Source of the DNA: Eledone cirrhosa
Taxonomy: Eukaryota
Direction of reading: 5' to 3'
Assembly (NCBI GenBank): GCA_964016885.1
Contig: OZ024753.1
Span: 11,532,001 to 11,596,000, forward strand
DNA length: 64,000 nucleotides
Position 1 is the first letter of the stretch. Each line of letters begins with the position of its first letter. Both the position numbers and the translations under genes were made by a program. Shown one piece after another: positions 52,332 to 57,312 of the stretch. The notes beneath the pieces were generated by a model, which had not been told where the DNA came from, did not search any database, and worked only from the letters and a program-made list of their open reading frames with translations.

Positions 52332-55300
52332 TGAGTATAGACATAGAATATTCGAAAATATTCTGTATGTTTATAATAAACATTTTGAAGACCTAATCGC
52401 TATAGAATAGAATACGTCACGTATTACAATTAGATTCTCGATAAAAGCAAGGGAAGTAATCTACGCGTTTCATTCTTGTTAGAATTCATCAGGACTACAT
52501 ATCCAGTGCTTTTATCGAGAATGACACAGCTAGAGACTTATAGAATACTTAGCTGTGTACTGGAACTGGTTTGAAAGAGCGGTTGCCGGTCCGGCAGAAA
52601 TTAGAAATTGGAATAAATGCTCTGAAATAGCGATATATATGTGAGTATAGACATAGAATATTCGAAAATATTCTGTATGTTTATAATAAACATTTTGAAG
52701 ACCTAATCGCTATAGAATAGAATACGTCACGTATTACAATTAGATTCTCGATAAAAGCAAGGGAAGTAATCTACGCGTTTCATTCTTGTTAGAATTCATC
52801 AGGACTACATATCCAGTGCTTTTATCGAGAATGACACAGCTAGAGACTTATAGAATACTTAGCTGTGTACTGGAACTGGTTTGAAAGAGCGGTTGCCGGT
52901 CCGGCAGAAATTAGAAATTGGAATAAATGCTCTGAAATAGCGATATATATGTGAGTATAGACATAGAATATTCGAAAATATTCTGTATGTTTATAATAAA
53001 CATTTTGAAGACCTAATCGCTATAGAATAGAATACGTCACGTATTACAATTAGATTCTCGATAAAAGCAAGGGAAGTAATCTACGCGTTTCATTCTTGTT
53101 AGAATTCATCAGGACTACATATCCAGTGCTTTTATCGAGAATGACACAGCTAGAGACTTATAGAATACTTAGCTGTGTACTGGAACTGGTTTGAAAGAGC
53201 GGTTGCCGGTCCGGCAGAAATTAGAAATTGGAATAAATGCTCTGAAATAGCGATATATATGTGAGTATAGACATAGAATATTCGAAAATATTCTGTATGT
53301 TTATAATAAACATTTTGAAGACCTAATCGCTATAGAATAGAATACGTCACGTATTACAATTAGATTCTCGATAAAAGCAAGGGAAGTAATCTACGCGTTT
53401 CATTCTTGTTAGAATTCATCAGGACTACATATCCAGTGCTTTTATCGAGAATGACACAGCTAGAGACTTATAGAATACTTAGCTGTGTACTGGAACTGGT
53501 TTGAAAGAGCGGTTGCCGGTCCGGCAGAAATTAGAAATTGGAATAAATGCTCTGAAATAGCGATATATATGTGAGTATAGACATAGAATATTCGAAAATA
53601 TTCTGTATGTTTATAATAAACATTTTGAAGACCTAATCGCTATAGAATAGAATACGTCACGTATTACAATTAGATTCTCGATAAAAGCAAGGGAAGTAAT
53701 CTACGCGTTTCATTCTTGTTAGAATTCATCAGGACTACATATCCAGTGCTTTTATCGAGAATGACACAGCTAGAGACTTATAGAATACTTAGCTGTGTAC
53801 TGGAACTGGTTTGAAAGAGCGGTTGCCGGTCCGGCAGAAATTAGAAATTGGAATAAATGCTCTGAAATAGCGATATATATGTGAGTATAGACATAGAATA
53901 TTCGAAAATATTCTGTATGTTTATAATAAACATTTTGAAGACCTAATCGCTATAGAATAGAATACGTCACGTATTACAATTAGATTCTCGATAAAAGCAA
54001 GGGAAGTAATCTACGCGTTTCATTCTTGTTAGAATTCATCAGGACTACATATCCAGTGCTTTTATCGAGAATGACACAGCTAGAGACTTATAGAATACTT
54101 AGCTGTGTACTGGAACTGGTTTGAAAGAGCGGTTGCCGGTCCGGCAGAAATTAGAAATTGGAATAAATGCTCTGAAATAGCGATATATATGTGAGTATAG
54201 ACATAGAATATTCGAAAATATTCTGTATGTTTATAATAAACATTTTGAAGACCTAATCGCTATAGAATAGAATACGTCACGTATTACAATTAGATTCTCG
54301 ATAAAAGCAAGGGAAGTAATCTACGCGTTTCATTCTTGTTAGAATTCATCAGGACTACATATCCAGTGCTTTTATCGAGAATGACACAGCTAGAGACTTA
54401 TAGAATACTTAGCTGTGTACTGGAACTGGTTTGAAAGAGCGGTTGCCGGTCCGGCAGAAATTAGAAATTGGAATAAATGCTCTGAAATAGCGATATATAT
54501 GTGAGTATAGACATAGAATATTCGAAAATATTCTGTATGTTTATAATAAACATTTTGAAGACCTAATCGCTATAGAATAGAATACGTCACGTATTACAAT
54601 TAGATTCTCGATAAAAGCAAGGGAAGTAATCTACGCGTTTCATTCTTGTTAGAATTCATCAGGACTACATATCCAGTGCTTTTATCGAGAATGACACAGC
54701 TAGAGACTTATAGAATACTTAGCTGTGTACTGGAACTGGTTTGAAAGAGCGGTTGCCGGTCCGGCAGAAATTAGAAATTGGAATAAATGCTCTGAAATAG
54801 CGATATATATGTGAGTATAGACATAGAATATTCGAAAATATTCTGTATGTTTATAATAAACATTTTGAAGACCTAATCGCTATAGAATAGAATACGTCAC
54901 GTATTACAATTAGATTCTCGATAAAAGCAAGGGAAGTAATCTACGCGTTTCATTCTTGTTAGAATTCATCAGGACTACATATCCAGTGCTTTTATCGAGA
55001 ATGACACAGCTAGAGACTTATAGAATACTTAGCTGTGTACTGGAACTGGTTTGAAAGAGCGGTTGCCGGTCCGGCAGAAATTAGAAATTGGAATAAATGC
55101 TCTGAAATAGCGATATATATGTGAGTATAGACATAGAATATTCGAAAATATTCTGTATGTTTATAATAAACATTTTGAAGACCTAATCGCTATAGAATAG
55201 AATACGTCACGTATTACAATTAGATTCTCGATAAAAGCAAGGGAAGTAATCTACGCGTTTCATTCTTGTTAGAATTCATCAGGACTACATATCCAGTGCT

Positions 55301-56147
55301 TTTATCGAGAATGACACAGCTAGAGACTTATAGAATACTTAGCTGTGTACTGGAACTGGTTTGAAAGAGCGGTTGCCGGTCCGGCAGAAATTAGAAATTG
55401 GAATAAATGCTCTGAAATAGCGATATATATGTGAGTATAGACATAGAATATTCGAAAATATTCTGTATGTTTATAATAAACATTTTGAAGACCTAATCGC
55501 TATAGAATAGAATACGTCACGTATTACAATTAGATTCTCGATAAAAGCAAGGGAAGTAATCTACGCGTTTCATTCTTGTTAGAATTCATCAGGACTACAT
55601 ATCCAGTGCTTTTATCGAGAATGACACAGCTAGAGACTTATAGAATACTTAGCTGTGTACTGGAACTGGTTTGAAAGAGCGGTTGCCGGTCCGGCAGAAA
55701 TTAGAAATTGGAATAAATGCTCTGAAATAGCGATATATATGTGAGTATAGACATAGAATATTCGAAAATATTCTGTATGTTTATAATAAACATTTTGAAG
55801 ACCTAATCGCTATAGAATAGAATACGTCACGTATTACAATTAGATTCTCGATAAAAGCAAGGGAAGTAATCTACGCGTTTCATTCTTGTTAGAATTCATC
55901 AGGACTACATATCCAGTGCTTTTATCGAGAATGACACAGCTAGAGACTTATAGAATACTTAGCTGTGTACTGGAACTGGTTTGAAAGAGCGGTTGCCGGT
56001 CCGGCAGAAATTAGAAATTGGAATAAATGCTCTGAAATAGCGATATATATGTGAGTATAGACATAGAATATTCGAAAATATTCTGTATGTTTATAATAAA
56101 CATTTTGAAGACCTAATCGCTATAGAATAGAATACGTCACGTATTAC
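52332..56147 (-). mobile_element. Tandem array of 310-bp hammerhead-containing units (retrozyme or Penelope pLTR-like), left arm, about 12.3 units with 12 ribozymes
   Basis: Exact 310-bp period (cgatatatat at 52631, 52941, 53251 ... 56041), with no differences between units seen by eye. Each unit contains the reverse complement of GTAGTC-CTGATGA-ATTCT-AACA-AGAAT-GAAA-CGCG-TA-GATTAC. The left end runs into (AT)n at ~52320-52331. Confidence 0.85.
52434..52522 (-). ncRNA. Type I hammerhead ribozyme (representative minus-strand copy, repeated every 310 bp to ~55930)
   Basis: Plus strand reads gtaatc-tacgcg-tttc-attct-tgtt-agaat-tcatcag-gactac (52456-52498), flanked by the 16-bp inverted repeat. 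Confidence 0.88.
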
Positions 56148-57306
56148 GTGTCATTCTCGATAAAAGCACTGGATATGTAGTCCTGATGAATTCTAACAAG
56201 AATGAAACGCGTAGATTACTTCCCTTGCTTTTATCGAGAATCTAATTGTAATACGTGACGTATTCTATTCTATAGCGATTAGGTCTTCAAAATGTTTATT
56301 ATAAACATACAGAATATTTTCGAATATTCTATGTCTATACTCACATATATATCGCTATTTCAGAGCATTTATTCCAATTTCTAATTTCTGCCGGACCGGC
56401 AACCGCTCTTTCAAACCAGTTCCAGTACACAGCTAAGTATTCTATAAGTCTCTAGCTGTGTCATTCTCGATAAAAGCACTGGATATGTAGTCCTGATGAA
56501 TTCTAACAAGAATGAAACGCGTAGATTACTTCCCTTGCTTTTATCGAGAATCTAATTGTAATACGTGACGTATTCTATTCTATAGCGATTAGGTCTTCAA
56601 AATGTTTATTATAAACATACAGAATATTTTCGAATATTCTATGTCTATACTCACATATATATCGCTATTTCAGAGCATTTATTCCAATTTCTAATTTCTG
56701 CCGGACCGGCAACCGCTCTTTCAAACCAGTTCCAGTACACAGCTAAGTATTCTATAAGTCTCTAGCTGTGTCATTCTCGATAAAAGCACTGGATATGTAG
56801 TCCTGATGAATTCTAACAAGAATGAAACGCGTAGATTACTTCCCTTGCTTTTATCGAGAATCTAATTGTAATACGTGACGTATTCTATTCTATAGCGATT
56901 AGGTCTTCAAAATGTTTATTATAAACATACAGAATATTTTCGAATATTCTATGTCTATACTCACATATATATCGCTATTTCAGAGCATTTATTCCAATTT
57001 CTAATTTCTGCCGGACCGGCAACCGCTCTTTCAAACCAGTTCCAGTACACAGCTAAGTATTCTATAAGTCTCTAGCTGTGTCATTCTCGATAAAAGCACT
57101 GGATATGTAGTCCTGATGAATTCTAACAAGAATGAAACGCGTAGATTACTTCCCTTGCTTTTATCGAGAATCTAATTGTAATACGTGACGTATTCTATTC
57201 TATAGCGATTAGGTCTTCAAAATGTTTATTATAAACATACAGAATATTTTCGAATATTCTATGTCTATACTCACATATATATCGCTATTTCAGAGCATTT
57301 ATTCCA

Positions 57307-57312
<6 letters not shown>
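56148..57312 (+). mobile_element. Same 310-bp hammerhead unit, inverted right arm, about 3.8 units with 4 ribozymes
   Basis: Reverse complement of the left-arm unit, starting abruptly at gtattac|gtgtcattctcg. CTGATGA cores are at 56183, 56493, 56803 and 57113. The arm ends in (TA)n at 57313. Confidence 0.85.
56153..56241 (+). ncRNA. Type I hammerhead ribozyme (representative plus-strand copy), predicted cleavage after GUA at 56213
   Basis: Stem I GTAGTC (56177-82) pairs with GATTAC (56214-19). Core CTGATGA 56183-89; stem II ATTCT/AGAAT with AACA loop; GAAA 56204-07; minimal palindromic stem III ACGCGT; GUA triplet. Stem I continues past an internal loop as a perfect 16-bp helix ATTCTCGATAAAAGCA/TGCTTTTATCGAGAAT. 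Confidence 0.88.

Follow-up and report, generated by a model that had tools for sequence, protein, structure and literature searches.

Metazoan non-LTR (non-long-terminal-repeat) retrozymes are, in the accessible text of the reports that describe them (PMC7229834; 10.64898/2026.07.22.740005; PMC7761336), tandem, low-GC units of 170-400 nt with one type I hammerhead ribozyme each and no open reading frame (ORF). Circle-templated tandem copying by Penelope-like elements (PLEs) is proposed for them, but not shown, in the portions of PMC7229834 and PMC4209133 available to us. PLE insertions themselves are described, in the part of Craig et al. (2021, PMC8557442) on which we draw, as having an inverted, 5′-truncated copy, a 30-40-bp tail on one end and (TA)n targets, and, as far as the available biochemical account goes (Frangieh et al. 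2024, PMC11167929), PLE protein in vitro cuts and extends both target strands, with reverse transcription beginning at two positions inside the RNA, which delimit the tail. Here we describe an element in a stretch of 64,000 nucleotides of the Eledone cirrhosa genome (assembly GCA_964016885.1, contig OZ024753.1, positions 11,532,001 to 11,596,000 of the forward strand; hereafter the window, whose numbering is used for all positions without a locus name) that, by a DNA-level definition and with its RNA features predicted, is a young, protein-free non-LTR retrozyme, and that inserts like a PLE, though it is not an autonomous PLE.

The element has a 310-base period, 16 hammerhead cores and no mismatches among its units from 52332 to 57313, with a GC content of 0.33-0.35 over the array region. 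Bases of the unit are numbered 1-310 along the predicted monomer (56214-56523, plus strand), which lies between two predicted cut sites. The longest Met-initiated frame in the circular 310-nt unit is 30 amino acids long, and an ORF for a reverse transcriptase (RT) with a GIY-YIG endonuclease is not present in it. The original prediction, made from the letters of the window, had described 16 identical 310-bp units with their hammerhead cores, stems, GUA triplet, 16-bp distal stem I, monomer and lack of an ORF, all of which we recover as described; its single tandem array did not stand, as the 16 units form two arms on opposite strands, with 12 cores on the minus strand and four on the plus strand, head-to-head. 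The arms join at their 5′ ends, and both outer (3′) ends abut (TA)n.

This anatomy recurs at other loci. Elements were taken from the 20 distinct loci among the 150 matches listed out of 439, chosen regardless of their ends, and from 40 stretches over the first-listed long ends (see below) on contig C1, which together with the window gave 63 elements. A minus-then-plus junction was present in 59 of the 63, the other four being one-armed (one of them cut by an N gap), and 57 were complete and two-armed; three cut elements and three uncut one-armed ones were left out of the end counts. Among the complete elements, 56 of 57 had one short outer end, at unit bases 121-139 (28 at 130 and 17 at 139), and one long outer end, at bases 163-170 (36 at 165), with a tail of 30-40 bp on one end only and the long end on either side. 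At the ends at 139, the CAUAUAUAU stretch there matches the target. Among the 20 loci sampled irrespective of their ends, 19 paired short with long (p 2e-5); of the 37 picked by their long end, all 37 had a short second end. Flanks were TA-rich on both ends of all 57 complete elements. A target duplication of 12-14 bp was found at nine of the 57 loci, all with an interrupted TA run beside the ends; published retrozymes are also dispersed, and the passages at hand give them duplications longer than 4 bp. Inner ends were spread roughly uniformly over the unit (chi-square p 0.31), with 3 of 114 within 10 nt of the cut site (7.7 expected), and the inner junctions without added bases overlapped by at least 2 nt in 28 of 44 cases (chance 0.18). 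Arm lengths had medians of 1.2 kb in both end classes, with no difference between them, and reached at most 4.6 kb in complete elements. At the inner junction of L069 lie 272 bases of unrelated GC-rich sequence (L069:3599-3870), perhaps a captured RNA. One arm at L065 (L065:27-8485), truncated by the limit of the stretch retrieved, is 27 units long or more and carries two variants that repeat without periodicity; later expansion or a long source array is possible for it.

Published retrozymes, in the sources as far as accessible, are arranged head-to-tail, and RNA and cleavage have been shown for them, whereas the obligate two-arm structure, the two fixed ends and the (TA)n rule belong to the window family, which is known from DNA alone. 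Neither a two-arm, two-end rule nor one haplotype per insertion was found in the accessible retrozyme literature, whose supplements and subscription papers may hold them. The two-armed insertion anatomy may be new in a retrozyme; PLE mobilisation and circle-templated copies had already been proposed in print. The closest likeness is to endonuclease-bearing (EN+) PLEs of the Neptune/Nematis type, which in the available text of PMC8557442 and PMC11167929 share with the window family the inverted 5′-truncated copy, the tail on one end, the microsatellite targets and two internal start sites downstream of the hammerhead; unlike them, the window family has no RT/endonuclease ORF, and its unit is 310 nt long and, in complete elements, copied up to about 15 times per arm. 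Mechanistically, extension of each target 3′-OH as cDNA leaves the left arm in minus and the right arm in plus orientation, as seen. The family is thus very probably mobilised by a Penelope-type RT-endonuclease, and the Penelope-like mobilisation that had been suggested for the array finds support in the insertion anatomy and in a young PLE with the same ends.

Genome-wide, a 20-mer across the cut site had 15,034 exact matches (control 0), and forward-strand ends at about base 165 followed by TA numbered 793 (control 0), which implies about 1,600 insertions, the reverse-strand end count being an over-count owing to the variable gap in its search pattern. In the end-picked sample there are 9.4 units to an element, in agreement with both the unit and the insertion counts. 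The family therefore comprises about 15,000 near-identical units dispersed over about 1,600 loci, a total of about 4.7 Mb or 0.16% of the assembly, and differs from classical satellite DNA, with its long unidirectional arrays at few loci, in its two-armed elements of median 2.8 kb. A 17-base motif of the unit, with 24,477 occurrences in the genome, picks out an older subfamily together with several sister families, which are about 70% alike over the whole unit; some of these have the U3-A8 core variant, given as a feature of PLE hammerheads in the part of PMC4209133 consulted, and others a helix III of 3-5 bp. With its dispersal, its near-identical units and the compensatory stem changes of its sisters, the array does belong to a young retrozyme family, as had been foreseen. 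Elsewhere, loci L141-L171 hold at least four older sister retrozyme families with the same start-site region and the same two ends; what sets them apart is the hammerhead (longer helix III, GUU/GUC triplets, U3-A8 core), and their arms are mostly short.

Structurally, a type I hammerhead is present in 16 of 16 window units, and against shuffles the monomer folds with z -4.4 and the ribozyme region with z -5.55. The hammerhead of each unit had been called full, which does not hold for helix III: it is 2 bp with a 2-nt loop, in the palindrome ACGCGU, and because it is this short the monomer hammerhead is unstable, the predicted monomer folds being without it. Two adjacent units do form it, a 401-nt two-ribozyme transcript folding, in both its minimum-energy and its centroid structure, into a double hammerhead whose two halves share a helix III of 6 bp. 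Self-cleavage of the transcript, predicted from the fold, would then proceed mainly as a double hammerhead between adjacent units, an arrangement given for most metazoan type I hammerheads in the accessible part of Cervera and de la Pena (2014, PMC4209133). The dimeric hammerheads of newt and axolotl satellites and the minimal hammerheads of PLEs, as described in the available text of PMC4209133 and PMC7229834, are alike in having a 1-2-bp helix III closed by a palindromic loop, and double-hammerhead working is predicted for them as for the window family; unlike them, the window unit has a 5-bp stem II and a long, 16-bp distal stem I. An Rfam search of the window, the check that accompanied the original prediction, gave no match at the gathering score, but did return a Hammerhead_HH9 match of 23 bits (E 0.0033) under that model's cut-off of 52. 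Evolutionarily, 88.7% of cells pair across 15 natural sister-family copies and both sides change in 18 of 27 pairs, compared with at most 49.5% pairing and six pairs changed on both sides in slid controls; the shuffle counts of this test are not probabilities, because the structure was drawn from the window copy and the 15 copies are related. Judged by this covariation, the ribozyme is under selection.

As to the enzyme, the genome contains 10,597 GIY-YIG candidates, of which 150 were scored and 50 loci fetched. One PLE family (L180, G000:C5:17087500-17097499) is very young, 121 of the 150 best-scored copies being identical over 150 amino acids; it has a 4.73-kb unit and a 784-amino-acid RT-GIY-YIG frame, in which the C-terminal GIY-YIG is preceded by a CX4CxxC linker that, by its sequence, appears to be of the Neptune/Nematis type (CX2-5CxxC before a C-terminal GIY-YIG). 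It carries a hammerhead-like motif with a palindromic helix III and ends 125 and 164 nt after the hammerhead-like cut site, compared with 130 and 165 in the retrozyme, while other PLE families end at 76/144 or about 200 nt. Sixteen young copies were fetched with 10 kb each; six showed one end only, and at 10 of 10 loci with both ends in view one short and one long end lay in TA. This Neptune-type family is the best candidate by age and spacing, and we tentatively suggest that it could be the partner. A partner is not established, because the L180-type PLE and the unit have no detectable common sequence; the 3′ regions of the examined PLE families were no more like the unit than shuffles were (z up to 2.9; best blastn E 0.36). 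Of the two genome searches that the original prediction had called for, the one for other loci thus succeeded, and the one for a partner Penelope RT/GIY-YIG element yielded a candidate but not a sequence link. Non-autonomous Chlamys PLEs such as MRC1 are likewise non-coding passengers, with multicopy head-to-tail insertions; as a rule, however, they are similar to their autonomous partner at its 3′ end, and their clade lacks canonical hammerheads, as far as the accessible account extends (Craig et al. 2021, PMC8557442).

Several leads in this search were set aside. Unit-like matches in PLE loci L092, L126, L130 and L133 came from other small insertions, retrozyme-like in kind, that sit within TA beside the PLE; the 19 loci with the conserved 17-mer outside young arrays were all sister families or the older subfamily, none being fused to a PLE ORF; and a loose-end motif from run contigs had no match in the genome. 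The PLEs also offered observations of their own. The L180-type PLE has a 5′ frame of about 436 amino acids from an ATG, in another reading frame than the 784-amino-acid RT-endonuclease frame, which has the same length in many copies; possibly this is a programmed frameshift in an endonuclease-bearing PLE, and the L121 family may be split into two frames likewise. At G000:C2:359516000-359534000 an inverted PLE pair is present five times in tandem, about 3.9 kb apart, and a 6.5-kb duplication at L133 contains a whole two-armed PLE, so insertions can be amplified later as DNA.

Each element of the retrozyme family is one haplotype. Variants private to one sampled locus occur in every pass of both arms at L060, L066, L072, L075, L076 and L089 (for example, 210A in 17/17 passes at L072, 35T in 14/14 at L075 and 259G in 7/7 at L060), and 1-nt indels are fixed likewise in L051, L060 and L068. 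The 37 end-picked elements contained 18 haplotypes, with a 10% chance that two elements share one. Residual variants were single in 65 of 70 cases, at 0.34 single variants per kb, and the cut site was crossed without a pass-specific indel in 523 counted passes, a count whose filter did not catch haplotypes carrying the 284A core change. Any new variant has to go through a single unit and be expanded again in a single step, as happens directly on a monomeric circle. These patterns suggest that each insertion was probably copied from one monomeric, circular RNA template. In such a mechanism, multimeric transcripts would self-cleave after GUA, mainly as neighbouring double hammerheads, and the monomers would be ligated to circles; the endonuclease would nick both (TA)n strands about 12-14 bases apart, to judge from the duplications; cDNA synthesis would start near unit bases 130-139 from one nick and near 165 from the other, the DNA ends being observed and the chemistry presumed; each cDNA would circle the template for a variable number of turns; and the two cDNA ends, seen now as junctions, would be joined at random unit positions, mostly via 2-5 bases of microhomology.

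Other templates and routes have to be weighed. The same Penelope-type enzyme and start sites could act on an uncleaved multimeric linear transcript, with the hammerhead having some other or rare role, and this would match the only in vitro PLE system (PMC11167929, in its available text) as well as account for the seamless cut sites, for a helix III that is weak and for variants that recur, for instance 13C, present once per arm of L068. We consider it rather unlikely, as each of at least 18 haplotypes would need a long, already homogeneous source array, arms would shrink in each round unless re-expanded, single-unit variants would often be expected in both arms (observed in 1 of 66), and copying of source junctions or flanks is not evident at the inner junctions, bar the one unexplained 272-bp insert at L069. 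The seamless cut site, together with inner ends that do not gather there, speaks not against an uncleaved multimer but against an RT that jumps repeatedly among cleaved linear monomers, of the same or different molecules, to build multimers. Haplotype switches of the kind that jumping would give do occur (mid-arm in L081, between arms in L036), but mosaic arms are almost never seen, and we give this route very little credence.

A similarly low probability attaches to short PLE-type insertions having been expanded and homogenised later as DNA, through unequal exchange, gene conversion or extrachromosomal DNA circles. Local amplification is favoured in the accessible part of Li et al. (10.64898/2026.07.22.740005), the long L065 arm with its repeated non-periodic variants fits it, and older sister families are mostly short; yet the process would need to have operated at about 1,600 very young loci, evening out inverted arms while leaving so few single variants, and arm lengths are mostly under the 4.7-kb PLE unit length. 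Lastly, assemblies are prone to err at perfect inverted repeats and TA runs, so inversion or unit identity could in principle be an assembly or long-read artefact. This is already largely refuted and scarcely credible, as junctions vary by locus, ends obey the short/long rule and haplotypes are locus-specific; moreover, contigs of a separately assembled public run (X1), possibly of the same sample, contain 12 further minus-to-plus joints, and the inversions are therefore not peculiar to this assembly.

Returning to the circular template and its PLE-driven insertion, a number of points count against this preferred account. The evidence is DNA, with RNA, cleavage and circle all predicted, and no promoter has been identified for the repeat. 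Within single elements, five of the 70 residual variants are found more than once (two in L065, one in L068 with a copy per arm, and one each in L069 and L081), and the haplotypes of L036 differ between its two arms; multimeric templates, switching of template or subsequent gene conversion would account for both observations better than a single perfect circle. In the in vitro PLE system, hammerhead cleavage was dispensable and unprocessed RNA was the main substrate, according to the accessible portion of PMC11167929. No sequence likeness to the unit was found in the 50 GIY-YIG loci, the 16 young copies or the 19 motif-sharing loci, in a partner hunt that scored 150 of the 10,597 candidates, whereas pLTR (pseudo-LTR) homology is reported for 21 of 57 Xenopus families in the available text of Li et al. 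(2026, 10.64898/2026.07.22.740005). L081 does not fit the 12-14-bp duplication, and duplication length is unreadable in pure TA, the window locus included.

Fixed variants lean toward A>G in the RNA sense (7/16 versus 3/62 singles, p 4e-4; 4/13 versus 4/63, p 0.025, after removal of ancestral, ambiguous and single-pass sites), in a test whose singles spectrum excluded L036 and whose fixed set excluded the L050 element of the old subfamily. A-to-I editing is a lead rather than a result, because G-U tolerance in stems explains this lean equally. Speculatively, a PLE RT-endonuclease dimer might nick both (TA)n strands, place two RTs simultaneously on one ribozyme-made 310-nt circle, with starts 35 nt apart, and recognise its passenger by shape and spacing instead of common sequence, such that each insertion would be a clonal print of one RNA and A-to-I-edited circles would found lineages; we offer this as a conceivable but doubtful extension of the circular-template reading.

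Coordinates of the window element, its hammerhead and the monomer unit
Feature	Position	Strand	Remark
Left (TA)n target remnant	52319..52331		13-nt pure TA run in sequence
Left arm, 12.31 identical units	52332..56147	-	Ribozyme polarity on minus strand
Left-arm outer (3′) end	52332 side	-	Unit base 130, "short" end
Left-arm hammerhead cores (n=12)	55908 down to 52498	-	310-base spacing
Inner junction, head-to-head, blunt	56147..56148		Unit base 35 (left) to unit base 245 (right)
Right arm, 3.76 identical units	56148..57313	+	
Right-arm outer (3′) end	57313 side	+	Unit base 170, "long" end
Right-arm hammerhead cores (n=4)	56177, 56487, 56797, 57107	+	
One type I hammerhead	56153..56241	+	Motif, folding, weak Rfam match, covariation, dimer fold
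Distal stem I, 16 bp	56153-56168/56226-56241	+	
Stem I GUAGUC/GAUUAC	56177-56182/56214-56219	+	
CUGAUGA	56183-56189	+	
Stem II, 5 bp	56190-56203	+	
GAAA	56204-56207	+	
Palindromic helix III (ACGCGU)	56207-56212	+	
GUA triplet	56211-56213	+	Predicted cut after 56213
Predicted 310-nt monomer	56214..56523	+	Cut site to cut site
Region with two inferred reverse-transcription start sites	56334..56383	+	Unit bases 121-170
17-base motif kept across sister families	56351-56367	+	Inside start-site region
40-base "tail"	57274..57313	+	Unit bases 131-170, right end only
Right (TA)n target remnant	57314..57338		25-nt pure TA run in sequence

Elsewhere in the window, a near-perfect fold-back between TA runs at 57850-57995 (z -15), with a hammerhead-like core on the minus strand, is probably a miniature two-armed insertion of another family. 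The hammerhead-like motif of the L121-family PLE occurs as a head-to-head pair at 60737 (minus strand) and 60786 (plus strand), and one more hammerhead-like motif lies at 63891 (minus strand). The window also contains a 25-bp tandem repeat of 317 copies with extreme GC skew (16148-24381) and tandemly doubled pieces of an interspersed repeat resembling a short interspersed nuclear element (31060-31483 and 40985-41258), which may be of octopus type.

The unit was also met in sequencing runs of six other organisms (X4, X5, X6, X10, X14 and X16), each of which gave one unit contig without flanks or loose ends; five were 331-340 nt long, as a closed 310-nt loop would give, and one 280 nt, with a depth of 365 for the X14 contig. 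A Hi-C run of one such organism had the unit in 0 of 12.8 million reads, a count that matters only if the organism is present in the run; for another such organism, two same-study runs contained none of the unit words. These contigs are most likely carry-over of a high-copy repeat, and on that reading the six runs are not counted as spread between species; a free circle outside the host genome would be a remote alternative.

In the accessible retrozyme literature (PMC7229834, PMC4209133), the enzyme that moves animal retrozymes and the question of whether the circle is the template are open, and how PLEs make tandem and inverted insertions is named as the next task in the part of Craig et al. 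available to us (PMC8557442). The family supplies a substrate of 310 nt, two mapped start sites, the spacing of the nicks, a young candidate enzyme whose frames are open and some 1,600 recent natural products, so that both questions become testable in one in vitro system. For the host, the family represents about 4.7 Mb of DNA that folds back on itself perfectly and, if transcribed through, would give long double-stranded RNA. If two RTs do act on a single circle, the insertions would constitute a direct genomic record of rolling-circle retrotransposition.

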